Below are positions 50,070 through 64,000 of a stretch of 64,000 bases of DNA, piece after piece. How positions within the stretch are numbered: the stretch's first letter is position 1; every line of letters starts with the position of its first letter. The notes under the pieces were generated by a model that saw only the letters and a list, made by a program, of their open reading frames with translations, was not told the DNA's origin and ran no database searches. The DNA comes from an uncultured Solirubrobacterales bacterium (lineage in GTDB: Bacteria > Actinomycetota > Thermoleophilia > Solirubrobacterales > 70-9): assembly GCA_963703335.1 (NCBI GenBank), contig OY969812.1, positions 972,495-1,036,494 of the forward strand. Direction: 5' to 3'. A program made the position numbers and the translations under genes.

Positions 50070-51220
50070 TGCCGGCGATCGGCGACATTCTCGACGGCAA
50101 GGACATCTGCATCTGCGCCGGTTCCGGTGGCGTCGGCAAGACGACCACCTCGGCCGCGATCGCGGCGGGGATGGCCGCGCGCGGCCTCAAGGTCTGCGTG
50201 CTGACGATCGATCCGGCGAAGCGGCTGGCCGACTCGCTCGGCCTGAAGGAGCTCGGCAACGAGGCCAGGCAGGTTGACCCCGCACTCTTCGAGCAGCACG
50301 GCGTCGAGATCAAGGGCGAGCTCTGGGCGATGATGCTCGACGCCAAGGCAACCTTCGACGAGCTAGTGGCGCGCCAGGCGCCGGATGAGGAGGCGCGCGA
50401 TCGCGTCCTCGGCAACCGCATCTACCAGCAGATCTCCAGCGCCCTGGCTGGCTCGCAGGAGTACATGGCGATGGAGAAGCTCTTCGAGCTGCACAGCGAA
50501 GGCCAGTTCGACCTGCTGGTGCTCGACACTCCGCCGACCCGCAACGCGCTCGACTTCCTCGACGCCCCGAAACGTCTCACCCAGTTCATCGAAGGCCGCT
50601 CGCTTCGCGTCTTCATGAAGCCGACCGGCTTCGCGGCAAAGGTCGCCGGCCGCGGCGCCTCTGTGGCCCTCTCTGTCTTCAAGCGCATCGTCGGCTTTGA
50701 CCTGCTCGCCGACCTAGCGGAGTTCTTCAACGCCTTCAGCGGCATGGTCGACGGCTTCCAGGCCCGGGCCAAACGGGTCAACAGTCTGCTCGCCGATCCC
50801 CATACCTGCTTCCTTGTCGTCTGCGGTCCGCAGGGCGAGCCGGTCGACGAGGCGGTCTACTTCCACCGCAAACTGGTCGAGGCGAAACTCCCCTTTGGCG
50901 GCGTGATCGTCAACAAGGTTCACTACCCGGCGGAGGAGCTGCGCGGCGGCGGCGAAAACCTGGAGACATCCCTAATCGAGAAGCTCGGCGACGGGGAGCT
51001 GGCTAAACGGGTTGCCGAGAACTTCGCCGACTACCAAGCGCTGGCCGAGCGGGACGCTCGCAACATCGAGCGCCTCGCCCGCGAGCTGCGTGCCCAGGGC
51101 GTAATCCGCGTGCCCTATCTGGACGAGGACGTCCACGACCTCGCCGGCCTGGCCGAGATCAACCGCTACCTCTTTGCCAGCAGCGAGGAGCGAATCGAGA
51201 TCGCCGCCGGTCGGGCTTAG
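50069..51220 (+). CDS. ArsA/Get3-like ATPase (Rv3680 type)
   Basis: ICICAGSGGVGKTTTSAAIA, LTIDPAKRLADSLG and LVLDTPPTRNALDFL. ATGA-type junction with the upstream ATPase. Confidence 0.85.
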   Translation: MPAIGDILDGKDICICAGSGGVGKTTTSAAIAAGMAARGLKVCVLTIDPAKRLADSLGLKELGNEARQVDPALFEQHGVEIKGELWAMMLDAKATFDELVARQAPDEEARDRVLGNRIYQQISSALAGSQEYMAMEKLFELHSEGQFDLLVLDTPPTRNALDFLDAPKRLTQFIEGRSLRVFMKPTGFAAKVAGRGASVALSVFKRIVGFDLLADLAEFFNAFSGMVDGFQARAKRVNSLLADPHTCFLVVCGPQGEPVDEAVYFHRKLVEAKLPFGGVIVNKVHYPAEELRGGGENLETSLIEKLGDGELAKRVAENFADYQALAERDARNIERLARELRAQGVIRVPYLDEDVHDLAGLAEINRYLFASSEERIEIAAGRA

Positions 51221-52824
51221 CCCGCGTGGCGGTAATGGTCGTACTTCAACTCCCGGACCTCCCAGTCCGCGTCCTCGGGCACCGGGAAGAGGTGCCGCAC
51301 GCGCGGGGTATCAATGCGCTCGCGGTGCTGAACGTCGCCCTCGATCGCGGGGAAATCGAGTGTGCTGTCCGGAGCCTCCACCTCGTCTAGCCAAGGCGTG
51401 GCGGTGATGCGAATCTCGCCCTCGTCCGGAATCGGCTCGAGGATGCGGGTCTCTTGATCCATGTCCATGTGCTCCTCCTCGGGCGGCGGAAGGTCGGCCA
51501 TTGGGGGTTCGTCGACGATCGGGGTCTCGCGTGAAACAACGATCTCCTCTGCTGCTGGAAATTCCTCGGATACCGCGATCTCGGGGTCGCCGGCGCCGAG
51601 GCCAGTGGCGATCAGCGTCTCGTCGGCGGCGGTATTGAGATCGGCGCTGAGCTCGCCCAGGGCGGCGTCGCGCAGGAGGCGGCGAACGCCTTCCTCGATC
51701 CAGCCCGCCGTCGCGAGCCCGGGCAGCGAAGGTGTTCCGTTCATCAGCGAACGCTCCAGCTCGAGGGCACTCTCGATCCGTTCGCGAGCCTCGATCCGAT
51801 CGACGCTCTCGTCCGCGATGAGCGCAGAGGCGCGCATCGGCAGCGAGGCGCCCACTGGGCCCTGGCCGTCGAGCACGGCGCGCAGGGCGAGCAGATGATC
51901 GCTCAGCCCCTGCAGTGCGGACTCGCGACCGCAGCCCATCTCGAAGCGGCCGACGGCCCAGGAGAGGGCGCCATCGGGATCGGGGCGGGCCTCCAGCGTC
52001 GCGGCAAACTCGGCAAGCTGAATCGCCTCGTCCTCGCTGAGGTCGTAGGAGCCGGATCGGGTCGCCGGCGCTCCGGTCGCGAGACGAGCCCATCGTCCCT
52101 CGCCGGTCGGGGCAAAGGCGTAGGGACCGAGGCCGACGCTGCCGGCTTTGAAGAGATGCATGACGCTGATCAGCTCGCCGAGCTGGTGCAGGGCCGAGTC
52201 GGCGCTGTCGGGACCGTCGCCCTGTTCGGCGAGAGCGAGAAATTGGGGTTGCCAGGCGACGCGACCCATGCCCTCGCTGCGCATCGCCTCGATTGGCGCC
52301 TCGATCGCGTCGGCGCGGACGATCTGGACGCCGTGGGGAAGCTGCAGGCGCGGCAGCGGCATGCGCAGGCCGACCAACGGCGCGATCAGGATGTCCGCGT
52401 CCTCGGCGCCGCGCGTCTCGGCGTCGAGCACGGCGAGGGCGTTTTTCAGGCGCTCGTGATCGAGAGAAAGTTCGGTGCAACCGTCCCAGAGCGAGGCGAG
52501 GAAGACGGTCAGCATCTGCGCGGCACGCTCGCCAGGGTCGCCGGGGACCTGCTCGCCGCGGGCTTCCAAGTAGGCGGCGGCGATACCGGCAGCAGCGACC
52601 GCGTCGCGGGCCGAGCCGAAGGCCTCGAGGCTACGCAGCTCGGTCTCGCGTTCGCGCACGTACTGCGAGGTCAGCGGCTGGTAGCTGTAGAAGAGCGAGT
52701 CATCGCCGCTGTCGGCATCGACGTCGAAGGGGATCTGGTCCCCACCGGCGACGAGGCCGCTGAGCTTGATCGCCGCCTCAGAGGCAAGACGGGTCAGCGA
52801 TTCGGTGAGCAGACGATCGCGCAC
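51217..52824 (-). CDS. Hypothetical protein, 535 aa, with an acidic C-terminal tail
   Basis: Long ORF with protein-like composition and no TM helix or motif I recognise. The C-terminal ~110 aa are D/E/P-rich. It is convergent with the second ArsA-like gene and overlaps it by 4 nt. Confidence 0.55.
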   Translation of the reverse strand: MRDRLLTESLTRLASEAAIKLSGLVAGGDQIPFDVDADSGDDSLFYSYQPLTSQYVRERETELRSLEAFGSARDAVAAAGIAAAYLEARGEQVPGDPGERAAQMLTVFLASLWDGCTELSLDHERLKNALAVLDAETRGAEDADILIAPLVGLRMPLPRLQLPHGVQIVRADAIEAPIEAMRSEGMGRVAWQPQFLALAEQGDGPDSADSALHQLGELISVMHLFKAGSVGLGPYAFAPTGEGRWARLATGAPATRSGSYDLSEDEAIQLAEFAATLEARPDPDGALSWAVGRFEMGCGRESALQGLSDHLLALRAVLDGQGPVGASLPMRASALIADESVDRIEARERIESALELERSLMNGTPSLPGLATAGWIEEGVRRLLRDAALGELSADLNTAADETLIATGLGAGDPEIAVSEEFPAAEEIVVSRETPIVDEPPMADLPPPEEEHMDMDQETRILEPIPDEGEIRITATPWLDEVEAPDSTLDFPAIEGDVQHRERIDTPRVRHLFPVPEDADWEVRELKYDHYRHAG

Positions 52825-52886: not shown

Positions 52887-53243
52887 CTAGGCGGCGGCAG
52901 GAGCTGGCTCGGCCTCAGCCGCAGCGTCCTCGAAGAGCCAGCGGCGGCCGTAGCGGCGCATGTCCTCGACCAGCGGCACCAGCGCCTCGCCCTTCTCGGT
53001 CAGCGCGTACTCGACCCGGGGCGGCACCTCGGGGAACGTGTGCCGCTCGACGATCCCCTCCTCTTCCAGCGCCCGCAGGCGCAGCGAGAGCGTGCGCGGG
53101 CTGATTCCCTCCAGCGAGCGCTCCAGCTCACAAAATCGACTAGACCCCTCGGCCAGGTCGCGGATCACCAAGAGGGTCCACTTGCCGCAAACGACTTCGG
53201 CCGTGCGACAGACGGGACATCTTGAGTTGGAAGCTGCACTCAT
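52887..53243 (-). CDS. HxlR-family transcriptional regulator
   Basis: CPVCRTAEVVCGKWTLLVIRDLAEGSSRFCELERSLEGISPRTLSLRLRALEEEGIV...VEYALTEKG. Confidence 0.85.
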   Translation of the reverse strand: MSAASNSRCPVCRTAEVVCGKWTLLVIRDLAEGSSRFCELERSLEGISPRTLSLRLRALEEEGIVERHTFPEVPPRVEYALTEKGEALVPLVEDMRRYGRRWLFEDAAAEAEPAPAAA

Positions 53244-53344: not shown

Positions 53345-54238
53345 TCAGGTGTGCCCGGTGACCACCGGGTAGACCTTGAGCACGGTGATCTTGTAGCGGA
53401 CACCGGCGGTGCCGAAGACGAAGGTCTCGGGGAAGTTCGGCTCGACTTCGATCAGCTGACAGGCGTTGGCGCCGGAGAGGCAGCTCGCTTCGCCGAAGAC
53501 GGCCGTGACCTGATCGGAGATCAGCAGCAGCGGCTTGCGCGTGGTCGGGCTGATTCCCATGTAGGTGACGACCTGGGCGTTTTCGCCGGGCAGGGCCGCC
53601 GGCGGGATCACCTTGTGGCGAACGATCGGGTCGTCGGTCAGCTTTTGGCCGTCGGCGCTGCTCGTCGTGCGGACGATCTTGACGTCGGCCGCAAAGCTGT
53701 AGAGCGTCAGCTGCGGGGCCTTGCCTCCTTCACTCCCAGGGGTCGATTCGCCGTCGGTTTCGGCGGTGACTTTGGTCGTCGAAGTGCCGTCCGGGTTCTT
53801 CGTGGTCTTCGTGACCTTGGTCGTACTCGTCGAGGTCGACGTCGTCGATGTACTCGACGACGATGCTTCATCGCCGCCGCCGCCGAGCTTGGTGCCCGCC
53901 AGCTGCGGCGACGTATAGCGCTGCACGAAGGGGTCCGTCGGATGCTCGCGCAGTCGCTTGCGGTAGTCGCGCAGACCGGGCTTGGCCTCAACCACGGTCA
54001 GCTTCGCGCCCGCCGGTTCCGGGCTGGGCGCGCTGGAAGCTCCGGCGACAGCGGGGGCCACTTCTTCTTCTTCCGAGCCACCTCCGAGCAGGAACGGCAC
54101 CGCGATGATCGCGACGATCGCCAGGCCGACCAGCGGCAGCAAGCGGCGGTCGCGCAGATCCCAGTACAGGTCGACGAGGAAGTCGGGAACCTTCAGATCG
54201 GGCATCTTCAGCTCCGGGCCCGCTTTCAGCCGTTTCAC
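53345..54238 (-). CDS. Single-pass membrane protein of the pilus operon (unknown; possible PilP-like component)
   Basis: An N-terminal TM helix (LLPLVGLAIVAIIAVPFLL), a Ser/Thr-rich linker (SSSTSTTSTSTSTTKVTKTTK) and a C-terminal beta-rich domain. 4-nt overlap with the pilO-like stop. Confidence 0.5.
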   Translation of the reverse strand: MKRLKAGPELKMPDLKVPDFLVDLYWDLRDRRLLPLVGLAIVAIIAVPFLLGGGSEEEEVAPAVAGASSAPSPEPAGAKLTVVEAKPGLRDYRKRLREHPTDPFVQRYTSPQLAGTKLGGGGDEASSSSTSTTSTSTSTTKVTKTTKNPDGTSTTKVTAETDGESTPGSEGGKAPQLTLYSFAADVKIVRTTSSADGQKLTDDPIVRHKVIPPAALPGENAQVVTYMGISPTTRKPLLLISDQVTAVFGEASCLSGANACQLIEVEPNFPETFVFGTAGVRYKITVLKVYPVVTGHT

Positions 54239-55002
54239 GGTGCGCCTCCCGTTGTCGTCGCGGCGGGCGTTGCGACGGCTTCTTCGGGACCGGTGGGCAA
54301 CGCTCCCGCTGTCGTGCCTTGGCTCGGGGGCGTCAGGTAGGTGGTAACCGAGAAGGTCGCCTGCAGGTTGGGGAATTTCGCTTCCGAGTCTTCGCCCAGC
54401 GAGAAGCCGTTGACGGTGATCAGCCTGCCGTCGACGCCGACGCCTTCGTTGGTCGTCTTTACCAGCGAGTCGAGGCCCTTGATGAAGTCGGCAATGGTGA
54501 AGAAGTTGCCCGTAAAGGCGAGCTTGTAGGGCATCACGGCAAGGCCCGCCGGGCCGACTGCGGCACCGAGCGACATCAGCGAGGCGGCTGCCTCCGTCGG
54601 GGAGACGGTTTCTCCACCCGCGGCAACGGGGCTCGCTTCGCCTTCCGATTCGGACCCTGCGGCTTCAAGGCTCAGGGTCTGGAACCTGACGCCGGCATCG
54701 TTGGCGACGTGGTTCAGCTGGACGAGCAGCGTCGCGGTTTCGTCTTCGCTGGGCACGGCCTTGCCGAGGACCACGAGGTGCTGGTAGTCGGTGGGGAATT
54801 CGCTGCGCGCTTCTTCGGCCGTGGCGATTTCTCCTTCGTGCTGCGCAAGGAAGCCTTCCAGCTGGGTGACCTGAGCGTCGAGCTTGCTCGCTTCCTCGCG
54901 CTTTGGGCTGAGCAGGAGAATCCAGAACGCCCCGGCCAGGACGGCGACGGCCAGCATCGCGCCGACCATCAGATTGGTGACCTTCTTCTCCTTCGCCTTC
55001 AT
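54235..55002 (-). CDS. pilO: PilO-like type IV pilus assembly protein
   Basis: An N-terminal TM helix, then a coiled coil (KLDAQVTQLEGFLAQHEGEIATAEEA) and a ferredoxin-like C-terminal part. Its position directly after pilN supports the call. Confidence 0.65.
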   Translation of the reverse strand: MKAKEKKVTNLMVGAMLAVAVLAGAFWILLLSPKREEASKLDAQVTQLEGFLAQHEGEIATAEEARSEFPTDYQHLVVLGKAVPSEDETATLLVQLNHVANDAGVRFQTLSLEAAGSESEGEASPVAAGGETVSPTEAAASLMSLGAAVGPAGLAVMPYKLAFTGNFFTIADFIKGLDSLVKTTNEGVGVDGRLITVNGFSLGEDSEAKFPNLQATFSVTTYLTPPSQGTTAGALPTGPEEAVATPAATTTGGAP

Positions 55003-55775
55003 CAGCCTTCGCCCCCTTCTTCGGAGCTTTCTTCCGAGCCTTCGGAGGATTCGCTGGAGGTCGTTTCGGCGACCGCCGTCGCAGCGATGGCTTCTTCGCC
55101 TTCGGCCGCCGGCACCGGAGCCGCGTCGAACGCGACCACGAGGCTGAACTGGGCGATGGACTCACGTGTGCGGCAGTCGTCGCCTCCGCCCGAGCCGCTG
55201 CCCGCCTCGTCCCCCTCGCTGGCGAGTTCGGAGGTCTGGATGCCGACTCGGGTGACGCCGTCGATGTCCTTGAGAATGGTGACGAACCCGGCGACCGCTT
55301 CCTGGCCGGCGGCGCAGCCGCTCAGTTCGAGCGCCGGACCGGCGATGCCGCCCCGCAACCCGGACGCAGAACCGCCTTCCGCCCCCGTCGAGTCGCTGGG
55401 GGTCGCGGAGCCGGTCAGGCTGGTAAGCCAGACGTCGCTGGGCAGGACGAGCGAGAGTTCGCGCATTACCCGCTCCCAGTCGAAGCGGCTGTCGGCGAGG
55501 CTCCTAACCGTCGCGATCCGCTGTTCGCTCAGCGCCTTGAATTGCGAGTAGGCGGCAAGCCGCTCGGCCTTTGCCGCGGCGACCGCGTCTTCCCGCTTTA
55601 GCGTTGCGACTTCAGCCTTGCCATCCGAGATCCGGTTGTCCGTGAGGACCAGCATGGTGACGCCGATCAGGAGCAGCGCCAGCGCCCCCAGGACGATGTA
55701 CATCACCGGTCCGGTGCGAAGCTGGGCGTGCTCGCCACGGCGCTGCTCGGGAGGGATCAGGTTGACCGGGCGCAT
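55002..55775 (-). CDS. pilN: PilN-like type IV pilus assembly protein
   Basis: MRPVNLIPPEQR (conserved PilN N-terminus that binds PilM), then a TM helix and a coiled coil. Confidence 0.75.
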   Translation of the reverse strand: MRPVNLIPPEQRRGEHAQLRTGPVMYIVLGALALLLIGVTMLVLTDNRISDGKAEVATLKREDAVAAAKAERLAAYSQFKALSEQRIATVRSLADSRFDWERVMRELSLVLPSDVWLTSLTGSATPSDSTGAEGGSASGLRGGIAGPALELSGCAAGQEAVAGFVTILKDIDGVTRVGIQTSELASEGDEAGSGSGGGDDCRTRESIAQFSLVVAFDAAPVPAAEGEEAIAATAVAETTSSESSEGSEESSEEGGEG

Positions 55776-55778
55776 CGC

Positions 55779-56897
55779 TCAGCTTTCCAGCGCAAGGCCG
55801 TAAGACAGGGTGAGACGCGCCGCCGCGCCGTCGTCGAATCCCGCCAGGCCCGCGGGCCGGGCGACGACGATCGCGGCGCCGAGGCCGTCCTCCATGCGCT
55901 GCACGAGTCCGGGGATGGCGCTGCCCGGGCCGCCGAGAACAATCCGGCCGACCGGCAGGGCGCTCTCCTGCGCCCCGTAGTAGTCGAGTGAGAGGCGCAG
56001 CTCGTCGAGCAGCGCGGTCACACCCTGCTCGAGCGCGGCGCGCGCTTCGGCGACGATCTCCGGGTCGCCCTCGAGCTCCTCGGCCGGCCGCTCGAGGCCG
56101 ACGTAGGAGAGCCACTGGAGGGCGTGCTCGGCGCTGAGGCCGCGAGAGGCGGCGAGGCGCTCGGTGACCGACTCGAGACCGACCTGGGAGACGCGGGTAA
56201 AGAGACAGGAGCGCCCGCGAGCGACGGCGAGGTTGGTGACGTCGCCGACGTTGCAGTAGAGGACCGCCTCGCGGGGTCGCTCGCCCGGCTCGCCGCCGGC
56301 CGCGGACATGCCCGCGTCGGCGAGGGCGCGGATCATCGCGAAGGCCGAGAGGTCGACGCCCTCGGGCTGCAGCCCGGCCCGCTTCAAAGGCTCGATGAAG
56401 GAGGTGACCATGTCGCGGCGCGCGGCGACGACGACGACATCGACCCGGGGTGTGGCGCCTTCCTCGGCGGGCACGCCGCCGACCACCTGGTGCTCGAGCA
56501 CCGCCTGGTCGAGGGGCATCGGCACCTGCTCCTGCGCCTGGAAGCGGACTGCCGCCTCCATCTCGGCCGGGTTCTCGATCGCCGGCAGGCGCAGCGTGCG
56601 GACGACGACGCGCTGGTTGCCGATGCCGAGACGGACCCGCTTGGAGAGCTTGTTCTCGGCGAAGAGCGTCTTCAGCGACGCCGCCAGACGATCCGGGTCG
56701 AGCACCTCTCCCTCGTGGAAGGCGCCGGGCTCGAGCGCCTGGATCGCCGATGCCGTCACTCGCGTGGAGCCGTTCGATCCCTCGACTTCGGTCGCGGCGA
56801 TGCTGCCCGCCTCGATATCGAGGCCGGTGATCCCGCCCGTCTTCTTCTTGCGGGTGAGCTGCAGCTGCAGGTTCGGTCTGGCAAAGCTGGTTCGCAT
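55779..56897 (-). CDS. pilM: PilM type IV pilus assembly ATPase-fold protein
   Basis: Actin-like fold pattern GLDIEAGSIAATEV...NVGDVTNLAV...LGGPGSAIPGL. Its position is upstream of pilN. Confidence 0.85.
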   Translation of the reverse strand: MRTSFARPNLQLQLTRKKKTGGITGLDIEAGSIAATEVEGSNGSTRVTASAIQALEPGAFHEGEVLDPDRLAASLKTLFAENKLSKRVRLGIGNQRVVVRTLRLPAIENPAEMEAAVRFQAQEQVPMPLDQAVLEHQVVGGVPAEEGATPRVDVVVVAARRDMVTSFIEPLKRAGLQPEGVDLSAFAMIRALADAGMSAAGGEPGERPREAVLYCNVGDVTNLAVARGRSCLFTRVSQVGLESVTERLAASRGLSAEHALQWLSYVGLERPAEELEGDPEIVAEARAALEQGVTALLDELRLSLDYYGAQESALPVGRIVLGGPGSAIPGLVQRMEDGLGAAIVVARPAGLAGFDDGAAARLTLSYGLALES

Positions 56898-56974
56898 CGG
56901 CCCTCTCTCAATCGACAGAAAGGCCGCAGACCTTTGCCCTGCAACTACTTATTTCTAGGAGAACCTGGACGGGC

Positions 56975-57730
56975 CTACGAGAAAGTGCCCAGGTACAAAT
57001 CGACCATCTGGTCGCCGAGGAGAAGGCCGGCGACGCCGCCGAGGGCAAGAAACGGGCCGAAAGGAATCGCGCGCTTGCGGGCCGCGGCCCCCTCGCGGGC
57101 GATCATCGCCAGCCCGACCACCGACCCCGCGAGCAATGCGACGAGAAGCGCCGGCGCCACGTTGCGACCGAGGAAGAGCCCCATAGTTGCCGTCAGCTTG
57201 ACGTCGCCGAGGCCCATGCCGCGCGGATAGGCGAGGGCCGCCAGGAAGAGCAGCCCACCGGCGCCGACCGCGGCCGCCAGCCGCTCGGGGAGGCTGCTGG
57301 GGTCGGTCGCGGCGGCGATCGCGACTCCGAGGACCGCGGCGACGATGAGGATCTTGTTGGGGATGATTCGCCGCTCGAGGTCGGTCAGGGTCACCGCGAG
57401 TAGCGTCGTCACCAGGACCAGGCCGAGGGCGATTTCGCCGGGCTCGTCCCAGAGGACGAGCACGGTGGCGGCGTAAAGGGCGCCAAGGGTCAGCTCTGTC
57501 AGCGGATACCGGGGCGAGATCGTCGTGCCGCAGCAGCGGGCCCGGCCGCGCAGTAGCGCCCAGGAGACGACCGGCACGTTGTCGTAGGCGGCTATCTGGG
57601 CCCCGCAGCCGGGGCAGCGCGAGCGTGGCCCGACGATCGATTCCCCTCGCGGGACGCGATGCGCGACCACGGTCACGAAGCTGCCGACGACCAGCCCTCC
57701 GAGGAAGGCGATCGCCGCGGCGGCGCCCAC
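56975..57730 (-). CDS. pilD: Prepilin peptidase (A24 family)
   Basis: N-terminal CPGCGAQI...CCGTTIS zinc-type motif. Multi-TM with GLGDVKL and the second Asp region. Confidence 0.9.
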   Translation of the reverse strand: MGAAAAIAFLGGLVVGSFVTVVAHRVPRGESIVGPRSRCPGCGAQIAAYDNVPVVSWALLRGRARCCGTTISPRYPLTELTLGALYAATVLVLWDEPGEIALGLVLVTTLLAVTLTDLERRIIPNKILIVAAVLGVAIAAATDPSSLPERLAAAVGAGGLLFLAALAYPRGMGLGDVKLTATMGLFLGRNVAPALLVALLAGSVVGLAMIAREGAAARKRAIPFGPFLALGGVAGLLLGDQMVDLYLGTFS

Positions 57731-57733
57731 GCG

Positions 57734-59233
57734 CTAGCCGCCTTCGGCGGGCGTCGTCGTGTCGACCTCGAGCCGGGTCGGGTAGTTCGGGTGGTCGTAC
57801 ATGATCGGGATCGCTTCGGCGTCGGTATTGCCAGGGTCGACGCTGAGCGCGACGCCGAGCCGGTCGTCTTTGAAGATCGTTTTCGGGGCGAATTCCATCG
57901 TCAGCCGCACCTTGGTCCATGCGTTTCGCGGCCAGAACCCGTTCCCCTGCGGCGTGTAGATCCAGTAGCCGAAGCCGGTTGCTTTGTCGCTGAGCCCGAT
58001 GTCTTCGACTTTCGATTCCCCCGCGGCGGTCGGGTGACGATCGAAGAGGTAGACGCAGAGCGTGCCGTGGTAGAGCGCGTCGTTGAGGGTCCGCGTGTAG
58101 AACTCGAGCGTCACTTTGCCGTTCATTTTGAAGTCCGCGGCGAACGGATCGGCGACCCAGCGGTGCACCTGGGACTCGGGGTGGACCGTGCCGGTCGGGG
58201 TGTAGTTGCAGCCACTGGTGTCGTCGCGCTTGATCTGCACGCCCTTGTCGGTGTCGGGAGTGGGCTCGAGGTAGCCATCGTTGGCGTAGTCGTAGAGCGA
58301 CGGGTTGGTTTCGTCTTCGGGGTCGGGGTCGGGCGGAGCGCCGAGCAACAGGGCGTCCGGCGCGCCGAGCGTCGTACCGGTCTGCGGTCCGCTGGCGCAG
58401 GTGCCAAGCGTGTTGTGCAGCAGGTGATCGCCGCTGATTTCATCGCGCACGGTGGCGCCCGTAGCCGAGCAGGTGGTGTCGGTGAGAAAGAACTGCTGCG
58501 CGGTCACGGCCGTGCCGGTGCCGGCCGCGCCGCCTTTGCCGCCGGCGCCTCCCGTGCCTCCGGTCCCCCCCGTGCCACCGGTACCGCCCGTCCCCCCGGT
58601 ACCGCCGTTCTGGCCCAGGGATTTCGGGTCGAGCGCGGCCGACTGAACTTCGATGTAGTTGCGTTCGCGCGGTTCGCTGCCAGTCGTGTCGAGCTTTACC
58701 GCGACCACGATCTGCTTGTAGTCGTGAAGGCCCGGGCAGAGGTCTTCGCCGGTTTCGCTTTCCGGACAGCTTTTGTCGTTGCGCCAGACGATGTAGCGGT
58801 ACAGGTGGCCGGCGACGTCGCCGTCTTTGAATTTGATCGGCCCCGGTTTGACCACGCCTTTGCCCGGCGGGTCGCTGCCTGCCACGTTGGCCGCCATCGG
58901 TGCGAGTTCGCCGTAGGGGTCTCGCTGCAGGGCGAAGTTGCCGTTGACGACGCGATTGTTGGGATCGAGCGTGTTGGTCGAATGGGCGGGCGTGACCGTG
59001 AGCGCCAGTTCTTCGTAGGGAAGGCTGTGCAGCTTCTCCAGCTCCTGCTGAGCGCGGTCGAGGGCGATCTGGGTCGACTTGGCGCGGGCGTTGTTGCGGA
59101 CCGAAGAGGCGAGCACGCCGAACAGGGCGGCTGACGCGAGGGTGAGGACGAGCGCGGCGACCAGGACCTCGATCAGGGTGAATCCACTCTCATCGTGGAG
59201 CCCCCTGGCCTCGTTGTCGCTACCGCGTCGCAT
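57734..59233 (-). CDS. Large minor pilin (PilV-like N-terminus, ~470-aa C-terminal domain)
   Basis: The start MRRGSDNEARGLHDESG/FTLIEVLVAALVL (prepilin cleavage and methylation motif) is at 59233. The track ORF extends spuriously to 59521. The protein contains a (GGT)6 tract. Confidence 0.75.
   Translation of the reverse strand: MRRGSDNEARGLHDESGFTLIEVLVAALVLTLASAALFGVLASSVRNNARAKSTQIALDRAQQELEKLHSLPYEELALTVTPAHSTNTLDPNNRVVNGNFALQRDPYGELAPMAANVAGSDPPGKGVVKPGPIKFKDGDVAGHLYRYIVWRNDKSCPESETGEDLCPGLHDYKQIVVAVKLDTTGSEPRERNYIEVQSAALDPKSLGQNGGTGGTGGTGGTGGTGGTGGAGGKGGAAGTGTAVTAQQFFLTDTTCSATGATVRDEISGDHLLHNTLGTCASGPQTGTTLGAPDALLLGAPPDPDPEDETNPSLYDYANDGYLEPTPDTDKGVQIKRDDTSGCNYTPTGTVHPESQVHRWVADPFAADFKMNGKVTLEFYTRTLNDALYHGTLCVYLFDRHPTAAGESKVEDIGLSDKATGFGYWIYTPQGNGFWPRNAWTKVRLTMEFAPKTIFKDDRLGVALSVDPGNTDAEAIPIMYDHPNYPTRLEVDTTTPAEGG
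58553..58606 (-). repeat. Imperfect 9/18-nt tandem repeat encoding (Gly-Gly-Thr)x6
   Basis: The minus strand reads GGCGGTACC GGGGGGACG GGCGGTACC GGTGGCACG GGGGGGACC GGAGGCACG. It continues into GGAGGKGGAAGTG. Confidence 0.7.
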
Positions 59234-59853
59234 CAGAAGGAGAGCGTCGCGCCGCGCAGGCTGGCGCCGTCGGAGATGGTCAGGTGGCCACTGCCGCGCG
59301 GGTTGGGGACGCTGAGGGTGAGGCCGATGTAGGTGGGTGCCGTGCCGCCTTTTGCCGGGCCGCATTCCGTCGGGTCCGCGTTGGCGCTGGGGACGAAGCA
59401 GAAGACCGAGGAGGAGTCGATGTCGGTGACGACCGTCGTCGACGTGCCGCCGCTGGTGCTGCCCACTTCGCGCTCGGTGCGCGTGCAGGAGCTGGTCGTG
59501 CAGCTGTAGACGATCTGGCACTGGATCGAGGGCGTCGAGGTGCTCGTCGGTACGGCGCCGCCGCAGGCCGTGCGCCTGACCCGGGTAACGAAGGAGACGT
59601 TGCTGGAGCTCGTCGCGGCGACGCTGGTGCCGTTGCGGATCTCGCGCGTCATCCGCTCCAGCTCGAAGCGGGCGGTGGAGATGCTCTGGGCCTGCTCCTG
59701 CTGCTGCGGCTGGGTGCGCACGGCGCTGATCAGCATCGACGTGGCGCCGCCGACGACGATGACGCCCATGATCATCGCCACGAGCAGCTCGATCAGCGTC
59801 ATGCCCGCCTCGCCGCCGAGCGTTGCCAGACGACGCCGCAGCCGCGCCCTCAC
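59233..59853 (-). CDS. Minor pilin/pseudopilin (PilW-like)
   Basis: GGEAG/MTLIELLVAMIMGVIVVGGATSML prepilin motif. The GTG start at 59853 forms a GTGA overlap with the propeller gene stop. ATGA-type overlap with the next pilin at 59233. Confidence 0.75.
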   Translation of the reverse strand: MRARLRRRLATLGGEAGMTLIELLVAMIMGVIVVGGATSMLISAVRTQPQQQEQAQSISTARFELERMTREIRNGTSVAATSSSNVSFVTRVRRTACGGAVPTSTSTPSIQCQIVYSCTTSSCTRTEREVGSTSGGTSTTVVTDIDSSSVFCFVPSANADPTECGPAKGGTAPTYIGLTLSVPNPRGSGHLTISDGASLRGATLSF

Positions 59854-62189
59854 CCCGACACCACCTTGAAGTTGCGCTTAGCCGGCTGCGGCTCGGCGAT
59901 TCCGGCGGCGTTCACGGCCCTGATCGCGAGCACGTGAGGGCCGCGGTCGAGCCGCTTCAGGCGCAGCGGCGAGCTGCAGGCCTTCCAGCCGTGTCGGTCC
60001 ACCTTGCAGTGGAACCTGGTGCCGGACTGGCCGGTCAAGTCGGTGAAGCGGAAGACGGGCCGGCGGGCGCGAGTCTTCGAGGCCGGCGCGAAGGTGATCC
60101 GCGTGTGGGGAGTGACGTAGGCGGGCGGCAAGGCGGGCGCCTGGTGGACGGTCGGGGATTTTTTGGCCCCTTCCTGCGAAGCGCCGCCCGCGCCGCCACC
60201 TCCGGATTCATTGCCGCCGCCGGAGGAGCTCTGCTGGGTGTAGGAGATCGCGCTCGAACAGAGCGAGACGAAGCCTTCGGCTTCGGCGGTGGCCCAGAAT
60301 TTCACCGTCGCCCCGGCCGCGACCGTCACCCCAATCCCGGGCGCCGCCAGCTGCCCGGCGGAGCCGTGCGCGACCGGTTCACCGGAGCAGTTCGAGGTGG
60401 TGTAGATCTTGACCGTCGAACCGGCTTCGGCTTCGCCGAGGATCTTCGGCGTCGTCGACGATGCTGGTGACGGTGGATCGGTGGCCGTCAGTTTCGGCGA
60501 CGGCGGCCCCAGTTCGAGGTCGGGCGAGTTGCCGGTGGACACCAGGCGCGTCACGTCTTCGCTCGATGTCGCGCCGAGAAAGCGTTCGTAGACGTCGACC
60601 TCGTCGTCCCCGTCTTCGAGCTTGAAGCGCTCGACCGTGGTGAAGTAGACGCGGCTGCCTTCGACCGAGGCGCCGACGAAGGTGGCGCCGCAGTTGCCTT
60701 TTTTCAGCGGGCAGTAGCTGGGGGCGGTCGTGATCAGGCTCGTTTCCCCGCCGGTCACGTCGCGGTCGTAGATGTCGTCTTCGCCGTCGCCGTCGTCGGC
60801 CGCGAGGACCTCGGTGCTGGTGAAGACAACGTGCGAAGCGTCGGCGGAGGCACGGTCGAAGCGGGCGTCGGCGGCACCGTTCCCGCAGCCCCCGCATCCG
60901 GTCCCCTGCGAGACCAGCAGAGGCGCTCCCCCACCGACTTCCTGCGAATAGATGTCGACGCTGCTGTCGGTGTCGGCGCCGGAGATCTGCTCGGCGCTGC
61001 TGAAGAGGACGGTGCCTGCGTCGGCGCTGACCGCGTCGAAGGTGGTGCTGCAGGCGCTTGAGCAAGCCGCCGGTGTGATCAGGCTGAGCGTGCCGCCAGT
61101 CCACTCGTAGACGTCGTTGAAGTCGTCTTGGTCCTCCGGCGCGAGGCCCTCGGGCGTCGTGAAGAAGACGTGCGCCCCATCGGCGGAGGCCGCCGAGAAG
61201 CTCGCCGTTTTGGTCGACAACGTCCCCCCGGAGATGAGCGTCGTCGGACCCCCCGGCAGGTCGCGCGCATAGACATCGGTCGCGGTGTCTTTGTCGGCTC
61301 CGACCAACGGCTCGTCGGTGCTGAAGAAGGCCCTTGTCCCACTCTGGGAGCTTCCCTGGAAGACGGGCACTGCGCCGTTGTTGCCGCAGATCGGCGCGCA
61401 GCCTTCTCCTCCCTGGGAGACCAGCGTCGTGACACCGCCGCTCAGGTTCCGTGAGTAGATGTCCACCGCCGTGTCGGTATCGGGGCTGGAAAGCGACTCC
61501 GCGGTGGTGAAGTAGGCATGCGAGCCGTTGGCGGAGATGCCGCGCAGGGCGACGTCGTCGAAAGCACCATTGCCGCAACCTGGCGCGCAAGACGGACCGC
61601 CAGCCGAGGCGAGGCTCGTCGTTTCGTCGGCGAGGTTGCGGAGGTAGATGTCGGCCGAGTTATCGGTGTCGGCGGCCGCGAGGCGTTCTTCGCTGACGAA
61701 GAGGATCTTGGTCCCGTCCGAGCTCGCCGCGGCGAAACCCGCGCTCGCGGAACCGTTGCCGCACGCGGGCGCGCAGCCAGCTTCACCCGCCGAGATGAGA
61801 CTCGTCCCGCTCGTCAGGTCGCGCATGTACACGTCGCTCTTGAGGTCGGTATCCGCCTCGACCAGCCCCTCTTCGGTCGAGAAGAAGACGACGCTGCCGT
61901 CGCTGCTCGTTTTCTCGAAGAGAGCGTTATAAGCGGCGTTACCACCCGCCGGTCCGAGCGACACCTCACGGGTCACATAGCTTTCGATCCCCGGTTCTCC
62001 GTCATAGGAGCGTTGGTAGACATCGCGCTTGGTGTCGGTGTCACCCGACACCAGCTGCTCGTCGGTTTCGAAGAAGACGACGGTGCCGTCGGCCGAGGAG
62101 CCCTTGTAGCTGGCGGGCGAGGCACCTGCCGGCGACGCCAAGATCAGCGCCGCGGCGAGCCCAAGCAGAATGACGATTATCCGGGGCAT
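59850..62189 (-). CDS. Secreted 779-aa protein: nine TolB/PD40-like propeller repeats with CxxxCGNG inserts, plus Ig-like C-terminal domains
   Basis: Signal peptide MPRIIVILLGLAAALILASPAGA. Nine repeats of the form S(S/A)DG..v.F.T.E.L...DTD...D(V/I)Y.R(D/N)L. Cys pairs are present (GCAPACGNG, SCAPGCGNG, GCAPICGNN, GCGGCGNG...). The C-terminal region (FRFTD...FHCKVDRHGWKACSSP...GPHVLAIRAVNAAG) is typical of Ig-like surface-protein modules. Confidence 0.75.
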   Translation of the reverse strand: MPRIIVILLGLAAALILASPAGASPASYKGSSADGTVVFFETDEQLVSGDTDTKRDVYQRSYDGEPGIESYVTREVSLGPAGGNAAYNALFEKTSSDGSVVFFSTEEGLVEADTDLKSDVYMRDLTSGTSLISAGEAGCAPACGNGSASAGFAAASSDGTKILFVSEERLAAADTDNSADIYLRNLADETTSLASAGGPSCAPGCGNGAFDDVALRGISANGSHAYFTTAESLSSPDTDTAVDIYSRNLSGGVTTLVSQGGEGCAPICGNNGAVPVFQGSSQSGTRAFFSTDEPLVGADKDTATDVYARDLPGGPTTLISGGTLSTKTASFSAASADGAHVFFTTPEGLAPEDQDDFNDVYEWTGGTLSLITPAACSSACSTTFDAVSADAGTVLFSSAEQISGADTDSSVDIYSQEVGGGAPLLVSQGTGCGGCGNGAADARFDRASADASHVVFTSTEVLAADDGDGEDDIYDRDVTGGETSLITTAPSYCPLKKGNCGATFVGASVEGSRVYFTTVERFKLEDGDDEVDVYERFLGATSSEDVTRLVSTGNSPDLELGPPSPKLTATDPPSPASSTTPKILGEAEAGSTVKIYTTSNCSGEPVAHGSAGQLAAPGIGVTVAAGATVKFWATAEAEGFVSLCSSAISYTQQSSSGGGNESGGGGAGGASQEGAKKSPTVHQAPALPPAYVTPHTRITFAPASKTRARRPVFRFTDLTGQSGTRFHCKVDRHGWKACSSPLRLKRLDRGPHVLAIRAVNAAGIAEPQPAKRNFKVVSG

Positions 62190-62256
62190 CTTTGGTCCTA
62201 TCGGCTGGATCGGGAATTTCGCTTAACGCTTGACGCCAAGCGCTGGCCAAACGAGC

Positions 62257-62285
62257 AAGGGGCGGGCCAATTTGGCCCGCCCCTT
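62257..62285 (-). terminator. Stem-loop downstream of pilA
   Basis: AAGGGGCGGGCC-AATTT-GGCCCGCCCCTT, a perfect 12-bp stem, 46 nt after the pilA stop. On the minus strand it is followed by GCTCGTTTGG. Confidence 0.6.
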
Positions 62286-62330
62286 GGCACGTTGCGCCTG
62301 GCTAGACCAGGCCGATCCGTCGGGCCGCTG

Positions 62331-63068: not shown

Positions 63069-64000
63069 CTACCTGGGATCGGGCGTGGAAACTGACTCCT
63101 CGAAGCGTTCGACCAGCTCGAGCAGCTCTTCGCACTCCCAGGCTCGCCCCCACTTTCGCTCGTTCAGCGGGCTGAGGATCCCCACGCCTTGGAGCTGTGA
63201 GATCGCATTCTGTACCGCGACGTGTGACCGTCCAGTCAACTCGCTTGCAGTGGACACGTCGATCACCGGCTGTCCCGGTAGGTTTGCGATCAACTGGCGG
63301 ACCACCGCATCGCTGCGGGGGTTCCCCAGCCGCTCCAGCCAATCGCTCTGCCGTTCGTCGATTGCCGATGCCATCCGCTCGGCCTCCGTGACAGCCCGCT
63401 CTGCTGACGCCGCGAAGAAATCGCACCAGCTGTTCACGTCGCCGCTGCTGAACGCGCCGAAGCCAGCGACGTAGGACCTCTGCCTGGCGGCAAGGACGAG
63501 GCTGATCGGGGGCACGTAGTTGATCGCTTCGCCCGTGCGGCGCAGAACGGTATGGATCAGAGCCCGGCCGACGCGGCCATTTCCATCCGCGAAGGGGTGG
63601 ATGTTCTCGAACTGAGCATGGACTATCGCCGCTTGAGCGATGGGCGCAAGGTCGCTGCGCGCAATAAACCGGCAGAGATCCTCGAGCAGCGGGCCCACAT
63701 GCTCCGGCGGCGGTGGCACGTAAGCGGCGCCAATCGGGTTGAAGTCGTTGCCACCGATCCAGTTCTGTTCCTCGCGCAGTAAGCCGGCGATCTTTCGATC
63801 GACAGAGAAGCGCAAGAGCGTGCGATGGATGTCCCGAATGTCGTCGACCGAGACACGCGTTCCAGCAACACCCAGAGCGATCGCTCGCTGCATTGCTTCG
63901 ACGTTGCCCAGGATCTCAGTTGCCTTGCTGTCCTTCTCAGGTCGACCCGCGCCGTCGAAGGCTGCACGCGCGAGGCGTTTCTGCGATATCGCGAGCCCCT
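63069..64000 (-). CDS. Fic/DOC-family protein (5' end beyond the right edge)
   Basis: HPFADGNGRVGRAL Fic motif and a C-terminal wHTH-like region. The reading frame stays open upstream of the first Met (63893) to position 64000. Confidence 0.85.
   Translation of the reverse strand, partial: GLAISQKRLARAAFDGAGRPEKDSKATEILGNVEAMQRAIALGVAGTRVSVDDIRDIHRTLLRFSVDRKIAGLLREEQNWIGGNDFNPIGAAYVPPPPEHVGPLLEDLCRFIARSDLAPIAQAAIVHAQFENIHPFADGNGRVGRALIHTVLRRTGEAINYVPPISLVLAARQRSYVAGFGAFSSGDVNSWCDFFAASAERAVTEAERMASAIDERQSDWLERLGNPRSDAVVRQLIANLPGQPVIDVSTASELTGRSHVAVQNAISQLQGVGILSPLNERKWGRAWECEELLELVERFEESVSTPDPR

Follow-up and report, generated by a model that had tools for sequence, protein, structure and literature searches.

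Between the major and minor pilin genes of an uncultured Solirubrobacterales bacterium from soil lies a gene for a 779-residue secreted protein with a beta-propeller head, and we tentatively read this protein, at a little under an even chance, as a Sec-exported, non-pilin accessory of a secretin-less type IVa pilus that fills an adhesin role of the PilY1 type. The gene, here called the propeller gene, was found in a 64-kb stretch of DNA, which we refer to as the window (64,000 nucleotides (nt); GenBank assembly GCA_963703335.1, contig OY969812.1, positions 972,495 to 1,036,494 of the forward strand). In the proposed architecture, an acidic propeller head is followed by a stalk, made of an immunoglobulin (Ig)-like domain (Ig-A) and a flexible linker, and by a foot made of a second, basic Ig-like domain (Ig-B). 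After Sec export, the foot would dock on the minor-pilin priming complex or on the pilus, the pilus would carry the protein outward, and the loop-rich face of the propeller, probably with divalent cations at its Asp triads, would bind a ligand in the environment or on a cell surface. The adhesin role would thus be filled as it is elsewhere by PilY1 or by modular minor pilins, without homology. Gene context makes the link of the protein to the pilus strong, and its tip location and adhesive function are what we infer by analogy with PilY1.

The original prediction, made from the letters of the window, described a secreted protein whose stop codon overlaps the start of the first minor pilin gene (GTGA) and which belongs to the pilus operon. 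The reading frame, the signal peptide and the surroundings of the gene bear this out. The TGA stop overlaps the GTG start of minor pilin 1 (the junction reads GGGGTGAGG), the ATG of minor pilin 2 shares 1 nt with the stop of minor pilin 1 (TGATG), and 3 nt separate the stop of minor pilin 2 from the start of pilD. A scan of one genome per species gave 37 loci, all from Solirubrobacterales and none from an isolate, and the order pilin, propeller gene, minor pilin 1, minor pilin 2, PilD, PilMNO and orf297 is the same in 37 of these 37 genomes. The 4-nt overlap with minor pilin 1 recurs at every locus with readable boundaries (29/29), and a WhiG-type promoter match precedes the gene. The original prediction had called for a survey of whether homologues always adjoin pilin genes; they do so at 37/37 loci, and forms of the protein that lack the propeller, described below, lie in pilus clusters in 4/4 look-ups.

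The closest proteins (60-92% identity, all about 780 amino acids (aa)) come from metagenome-assembled genomes of Solirubrobacterales and are annotated as hypothetical, as 'TolB family' or as 'Tol biopolymer transport system component'. Across the 37 loci, propeller identity falls from 84% to about 36%. Where PilM keeps 65-85% identity, the propeller has 36-60%, with 36-49% at the farthest loci. This faster evolution suggests an exposed, ligand-facing protein. Upstream in the relatives, in a part of the cluster that lies off the window, are genes for PilT, a 511-aa PilX-like pilin, a 195-aa protein, PilB, PilT and PilC. The PilX-like pilin, encoded between pilT and pilB (locus L002, 1478-3013, plus strand), lacks Glu5 (ERG↓MALPV...) and matches DUF7305; by analogy, it is a natural candidate for the tip pilin that would receive a PilY1-like partner.

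The signal peptide is the sole hydrophobic run of the 779-aa protein and is modelled as a helix at aa 2-17, and the propeller begins directly after it. The propeller protein has no LPXTG motif, no membrane anchor and no GFxxxE prepilin motif, and it lacks the N_methyl match that its three pilin neighbours have. We considered a modular type IV pilin as an alternative identity and rejected it, as the protein has neither a class III signal peptide (G↓F/M-x-x-x-E) nor the hydrophobic N-terminal helix. Modular pilins fuse their adhesive module to a pilin or pilin-like N-terminus, whereas here a Sec signal peptide is present and a pilin module is missing, so any attachment to the pilus must be non-covalent.

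The head consists of nine repeats, and all nine acidic loops quoted in the original prediction were found, at aa 50, 113, 174, 237, 299, 353, 406, 466 and 526; their period, given there as 45-55 aa, is in fact 53-63 aa. Each of the nine repeats has the loop form D-x-D-x3-D-[VI]-Y, and the pattern D.[DE]...D[IVL][YF] occurs nine times, compared with a mean of 0.005 and a maximum of one in 20,000 shuffles of the propeller protein. The S-x-DG strand that had been assigned to every repeat is found in seven of the nine with a relaxed pattern (S-x-DG-x-x-[VIL]-F). Cys pairs do stand at most blade junctions (6/8), but only four have the predicted C-x2-3-C-G-N-G form (139/143, 201/205, 264/268 and 432/435); pairs 376/380 and 493/500 have other spacings. 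Some orthologues lose individual Cys loops, which fits surface staples rather than core elements.

An AlphaFold2 model based on an alignment of 38 sequences (predicted local distance difference test score (pLDDT) 80, predicted template modelling score 0.67) comprises nine groups of four strands, 36 in all, and after them two beta-sandwich domains. From this strand count, from the better template modelling (TM) scores to ten- than to seven-bladed propellers, and from the loop counts of relatives, we infer a nine-blade ring as the domain unit. These loop counts cluster at 9, 17-18 and 52, about multiples of nine, and there are chains that contain the nine-loop unit two times or, in the 7,417-aa protein P0260, about six times. 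In the model, strands 2 and 3 of each blade are joined by the acidic loop, and strand 4 is joined to the next strand 1 by the Cys-pair insert. Four-stranded blades alternate in topology, an established feature, and the acidic loops and Cys inserts would for this reason share one face of the ring, an arrangement consistent with a cation-loaded binding face.

All 27 Asp positions of the loops are invariant or at least 90% conserved among the 38 orthologues, where mean column identity is 68%. In distant orthologues and paralogues the loop consensus is D-T-D-x-x-x-D-[VIL]-Y; the motif counts for distant loci leave out five of 17 loci, four with spurious high-GC frames and one (L037) with a truncated open reading frame (ORF). 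Asn for Asp is the main substitution at loop position 3 and the only one to recur; it affects about 13% of loops and is what one would expect of metal ligands. The Asp triads are candidate sites for divalent cations. In PilY1, a calcium-binding, EF-hand-like loop of the propeller controls pilus dynamics. The spacing of the present D-x-D-x3-D loops differs from that of the nine-residue D-x-D-x-D-x-x-x-D loop type.

The two Ig-like modules joined by a Gly/Ser linker, also part of the original prediction, were recovered in the models: both C-terminal domains reach a pLDDT of about 97 in a separate model of aa 545-779, the linker (aa 656-688 in the full model) stays below 50 in both models, and its mean identity among orthologues is 32%. 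A Pfam search with the two C-terminal domains alone gave no useful match at E<=10, and none to a Big family; in relatives, Big_13 and Big_6 match neighbouring modules. The model and its fold matches confirm the Ig/FN3-like fold of the tail, and those for aa 545-779 are tandem Ig/FN3 stalks, such as SiiE, GhpA and FN3 pairs. As fold matches to the stalks of giant adhesins, these speak for a displayed adhesin.

The protein is electrostatically polarised. The propeller has 81 Asp and Glu against 27 Lys and Arg residues (isoelectric point (pI) 4.05), and the terminal Ig-B has 4 against 18 (pI 11.7). This basic character belongs to the terminal position of the module, with a median pI of 11.8 for C-terminal Ig-B copies (n=252) and of 4.2 for internal copies in other, including giant, repeat proteins (n=826).

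The original prediction compared the repeats to TolB/PD40 blades, which stands as a likeness of fold and not as an identity. The Pfam family PD40 (PF07676) scores 18.0 bits, below its gathering cut-off of 20.9; it matches 16 of the 38 orthologues at E<=0.05 (best E 1.4e-5), and one paralogue, P0245, is above the cut-off with 32.8 bits. The propeller is a divergent relative of PD40 and not a scored member. Foldseek returned S9 peptidase propellers and TolB with probability 1.0; for the whole model, the ten-bladed Vps10 propellers of SorCS2 and sortilin lead (E 2e-14, TM 0.34-0.44), followed by two-propeller sensor domains, S9 peptidase propellers and TolB. Sequence searches of the PDB with the whole protein and with a nine-blade profile gave nothing significant, and an NCBIfam scan of the propeller protein returned no family. 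Two identities suggested by these matches were rejected: TolB, as the protein lacks the N-terminal domain of TolB and has nine blades where TolB has six, and a Vps10/sortilin member, as it has nine repeats rather than ten blades, a TM of only 0.34-0.44 and no Sortilin-Vps10 Pfam match at E<=0.1. The database names, the weak PD40 matches and the fold matches to TolB and S9 peptidases could still be taken to mean that a TolB- or peptidase-type propeller unrelated to pili merely happens to lie between the pilin genes. We consider this very improbable, and disfavour it: Pfam finds neither TolB_N nor a peptidase domain in the protein, the blades number nine and not six or seven, the pilus context and the translational coupling are invariant, and the promoter is of the pilus-regulon type.

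Pfam likewise gave no PilY1-family match, either for the 779-aa protein (E<=0.1) or for the 38 orthologues (E<=0.05), and PilY1 is not among the top 50 Foldseek matches of the whole model. By these comparisons the propeller protein is not homologous to PilY1, as had been proposed from the outset. The functional analogy needs to be redrawn, however: a non-pilin protein encoded in the pilus operon was correctly foreseen, but the propeller cannot be equated with the pilin-contacting propeller of PilY1, since it is dispensable. Judging by gene content, the propeller is an exchangeable head, because in sister lineages this slot is taken by a protein without a propeller. With aa 538-779 alone as the query, a search retrieved complete 350-390-aa proteins made of a signal peptide, two Ig-A modules and a terminal Ig-B, and in 4/4 look-ups, all in sister-lineage pilus clusters, these lie between the major pilin gene (at a gap of 25 nt) and pilD. 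A 430-aa gene upstream of the minor pilins in the propeller-less loci was considered as a separated head and rejected; it is unrelated and itself pilin-like. A representative search with the whole protein (clusters at 50% identity) gave 22,011 matches at E<=1e-3, a count that takes in matches to the Ig-like tail modules alone, and 1,705 at E<=1e-30. Among these architectures, P0235, P0261 and P0275 combine the same head with three or four Ig-A modules and a basic Ig-B end, and P0233 combines it with eight acidic Ig-B modules, three Ig-A modules and the same kind of end. P0261 (38% identical) is encoded directly after pilB/T/C and a pilin gene; a metagenome scan with it found two loci only. Relatives in the pilus slot have one to four Ig-A copies, and among relatives at large the stalk counts 1-11 modules, with head and basic foot constant, which again fits a displayed adhesin. 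Both Ig-like modules also recur 10-47 times in giant proteins of 2,000-7,400 aa (P0221-P0369); with their Ig modules and propellers, these giant proteins are a large, uncharacterised surface-protein toolkit.

The same observations bear on whether the protein might act in pilus assembly. It could prime or cap the growing pilus, or guide it across the thick wall of an envelope that has no secretin, and the propeller would then be a structural scaffold. Every cluster surveyed has a homologue, the gene is coupled to the minor pilins, which prime assembly (PMC7541494), and the propeller-less form sits 25 nt after pilA and before pilD, all of which would suit such a factor. A propeller that sister lineages can do without is nevertheless no core assembly element, and its identity of 36-60%, compared with 65-85% for PilM, points the same way; we regard an assembly role as improbable.

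The terminal Ig-B is common to every variant found in the pilus slot, and for this reason the basic Ig-B is the best candidate for a docking or anchoring element, and likely one as far as sequences can tell. What it docks on is the question on which the preferred reading meets its main rival, in which the protein is an adhesin anchored in the cell envelope and co-regulated with the pilus but not carried by it. Ig-B would then bind anionic wall polymers or the membrane surface, the stalk would project the propeller, and the pilus would pull the cell in for the propeller protein to make the short-range contact. A foot with a pI of about 11.7, where internal copies of the same module are acidic, would suit this role, as would a variable stalk length, which is typical of wall-anchored adhesins. 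Several further observations also weigh against a pilus-borne adhesin. A basic terminal Ig-B ends the secreted proteins P0217 and P0219, which are encoded outside pilus loci, so that a general envelope anchor fits as well as a pilus dock. Nor is the nine-blade propeller specific to pili, since it is also found in double propellers and together with PASTA tails, which are wall-binding modules. In the sister lineage with the propeller-less form, the minor pilins lie in a separate pilMNO operon on the other strand, so their linkage is not universal. All loci, moreover, come from one order and its close relatives, and the synteny may partly reflect shared ancestry. An envelope anchor, on the other hand, requires neither the 4-nt coupling to the minor pilin (29/29) nor a fixed slot beside the pilin gene in every variant, and Pfam scans detected no known wall-binding domain family in the protein. 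We therefore place this alternative well short of an even chance, as unlikely but to be taken seriously, and ahead of a released protein or an assembly factor.

One could also speculate that the basic Ig-B is a shared docking tag and that the type IV pilus, or a wall-crossing site, serves in Thermoleophilia as a display or export platform for several heads. The propeller protein may then be a dedicated, operon-encoded cargo, with other basic Ig-B proteins using the same dock. Other secreted proteins with a basic Ig-B end include a beta-helix protein, an LTD-like protein and a subtilase fragment; a profile search with basic Ig-B tails returned almost only short gene fragments. We give this idea a small chance.

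TcpF and CofJ, soluble Sec-dependent proteins encoded in type IVb pilus operons, bind the minor pilin at the tip transiently before they are released. By comparison with them, or with type II secretion substrates, the propeller protein might be a soluble protein released through the wall with the pilus machinery as piston. It carries a Sec signal peptide, lacks an anchor and is encoded in a pilus operon. The basic foot might serve for recognition, and its occurrence on further secreted proteins would agree with an export tag in common use; PilY1, too, has been likened to a type II secretion substrate (PMC7541494). A head-stalk-foot design with a variable stalk suits display better than release, however, and Pfam shows no similarity to the TcpF or CofJ families; nothing points to an enzymatic or toxin domain. 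TcpF and CofJ, which have unrelated folds, are released, whereas a stalked propeller protein suggests retention, and release appears improbable.

Under the preferred reading of a pilus-borne adhesin, the nearest parallel is PilY1, which carries a type I signal peptide, attaches to the minor pilins and is displayed at the tip of the pilus as an adhesin with a variable distal domain (PMC7541494). Like PilY1/PilC of P. aeruginosa, Neisseria and Myxococcus, the propeller protein is large, combines a beta-propeller with another module and is encoded with minor pilins. Members of the PilY1/PilC family are needed for piliation or adhesion. The propeller of PilY1 is C-terminal, seven-bladed in a modified form (PDB 3HX6), conserved and in contact with pilins, whereas here it is N-terminal, nine-bladed, PD40-like and dispensable; the conserved part is instead the basic Ig-like foot, there is no vWA domain, and the host has neither an outer membrane nor a secretin. 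If the analogy holds, the propeller would correspond to the variable N-terminal head of PilY1 and not to its propeller. An adhesive globular module on a type IV pilus without a classical outer membrane is also seen in S. sanguinis PilB/PilC and Saccharibacteria PilX2 (PMC6916266, PMC11623550), the latter reported as a pilus adhesin with a seven-bladed RCC1 propeller (PMC11623550). A 2019 review credits pilus adhesion in monoderms to modular pilins, and the type IV pili it lists as studied in Actinobacteria are of the Tad/type IVc kind (PMC6916266). In full-text literature searches we found no paper pairing PD40/TolB-like propellers with type IV pili and no study of Solirubrobacterales pili.

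As to shape, PD40/TolB-type propellers (TolB, S9 peptidase, Tricorn) have the same blade signature, S-x-D-G...[VI]-[FY]...D-[VI]-Y. The protein departs from them in that its blades number nine, the loop between strands 2 and 3 is longer and includes an extra D-x-D, and Cys-pair inserts are present. Vps10 receptors such as sortilin and SorCS2 similarly have a large single-ring propeller followed by Cys-containing and Ig/PKD-like modules, but they are eukaryotic, with ten-bladed Asp-box propellers and 10CC modules, and the resemblance is one of shape only. The tandem Ig-like modules recall the stalks of giant adhesins (the BIg domains of SiiE, GhpA), although here there is one stalk module and a charge-inverted terminal copy. 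Nine-bladed propellers are known elsewhere, for example in eIF2A and eIF3b.

The control regions suggest how the gene is expressed (Table 1). The promoter match has two mismatches to the consensus TAAA / GCCGATAA, begins immediately after a hairpin and ends its -10 element 8 nt before the ATG, so the propeller-gene mRNA is probably leaderless or near-leaderless. The consensus and the criteria of the search follow work on Rubrobacter, where pilus promoters identified with them have been confirmed by experiment (PMC8325347). Only four WhiG-type sites with at most two mismatches occur in the 64-kb window (five hits when spacer and register are counted), and about 30 of 36 related loci have a match whose -10 element lies 7-8 nt ahead of the ATG. 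Related loci also have the motif upstream of pilT, the PilX-like gene and the pilin gene, and it stands 7-12 nt before the ATG of several pilus genes (the propeller gene, pilT and the PilX-like gene). This implies, at the level of sequence, a WhiG-controlled pilus regulon with leaderless transcripts in Solirubrobacterales, as reported for Rubrobacter. An RsiG anti-sigma gene (L042, 2556-2822, minus strand) lies about 5 kb from the gene for P0219, the secreted protein with a basic Ig-B end; these relatives therefore carry the RsiG/WhiG system.

The 110 nt between the pilin and propeller genes fold at -65.7 kcal/mol (z = -5.2 against shuffles). A scan for consensus terminators did not call the hairpin after pilA, because its T-run is weak; it is nonetheless likely a terminator or attenuator of the pilin transcript, and probably separates high pilin expression from the accessory and minor-pilin unit. 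With the hairpin after the pilin gene and the promoter match just before the ATG, the propeller gene appears to be the first cistron of its own transcription unit, distinct from the pilin transcript.

Table 1 Features of the propeller gene, its product and the pilus cluster. Positions are those of the window unless a related locus is named; arrows mark cleavage sites
Feature	Position	Strand	Remarks
Propeller gene, ORF	59850..62189	minus	779 aa, ATG start
Sec-type (type I) signal peptide, aa 1-23	62121..62189	minus	MPRIIVILLGLAAALILASPAGA↓SP; cleavage site inferred; no lipobox Cys, no prepilin motif
Acidic nine-repeat PD40-like beta-propeller head, aa 24-552	60534..62120	minus	pI 4.05
Ig-A, stalk module, aa 553-655	60225..60533	minus	Cys601/Cys644
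Disordered Gly/Ser-rich linker, aa 656-690	60120..60224	minus	
Ig-B, aa 691-779	59853..60119	minus	Cys728/Cys738; pI 11.7
Stop/start overlap GTGA, propeller gene to minor pilin 1	59850..59853	minus	translational coupling
WhiG-type promoter match, flagellar (sigma-28-like), TAAG-N16-GCCGATAG	62198..62225	minus	function inferred
GC-rich 14-bp hairpin, CAAGGGGCGGGCCA-AAU-UGGCCCGCCCCUUG, then CUCGUUUGG	62256..62286	minus	downstream of major pilin gene
Major pilin, 162 aa	62331..62819	minus	prepilin motif G↓FTLIELLV; GGAGG Shine-Dalgarno precedes; N_methyl match
Minor pilin 1, 206 aa	59233..59853	minus	G↓MTLIELLV, Glu5 present; Pfam N_methyl; GTG start
Minor pilin 2, 499 aa	57734..59233	minus	G↓FTLIEVLV
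Rest of transcription unit	53345..57730	minus	Pfam matches for PilD, PilM, PilN, PilO
Prepilin peptidase PilD	56975-57730	minus	
PilM	55779-56897	minus	
PilN	55002-55775	minus	
PilO	54235-55002	minus	
orf297, 297-aa conserved membrane protein	53345-54238	minus	no Pfam family; directly after pilO
Motifs TAAA-N15/16-GCCGATAA	L002 251-278, 1442-1469, 9967-9993; L039 1920-1946; L043 1172-1198, 9962-9988		

Among the neighbouring genes, minor pilin 1 has weak NCBIfam matches of the PilV/GspI type. Minor pilin 2 contains a Gly-Gly-Thr run, encoded by a repetitive DNA tract in the 58452-58646 region (GGTGGTGGTGGTGGTGGTGGAGG...), which could be a length-variable linker; its matches in the PDB are spurious low-complexity ones to this Gly-Thr linker only. 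The 297-aa membrane protein after pilO has a Ser/Thr-rich linker and is kept at the end of every related pilus cluster. Also present in every related cluster is a 535-aa protein with no Pfam family (51217-52824, minus strand), on the far side of a regulator gene of the HxlR type (52887-53243). None of the genes examined in the pilus cluster was seen to encode a secretin. Between pilC and the pilin gene the cargo varies among genomes: there is a Fic-domain gene in the window (63069-63893, minus strand) and in L039 (8000-9238), and an antitoxin/PIN pair with a transposase in L038 (7367-9100). This gap looks like a recurrent insertion hotspot inside the pilus cluster.

The analysis defines a family of nine-bladed propellers without sequence matches in the PDB. 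If the proposed role is correct, the solution embodied by PilY1, in which minor pilins carry a distinct adhesin, has evolved independently out of unrelated domains, and the charge-inverted basic Ig domain would provide a concrete, testable docking element. Should this domain indeed be a shared docking tag, the pili of a monoderm would have a system that resembles dockerins. Finally, the conserved leaderless promoters of the WhiG type would extend the control of pili by cyclic di-GMP and WhiG, as reported for Rubrobacter, to Thermoleophilia.

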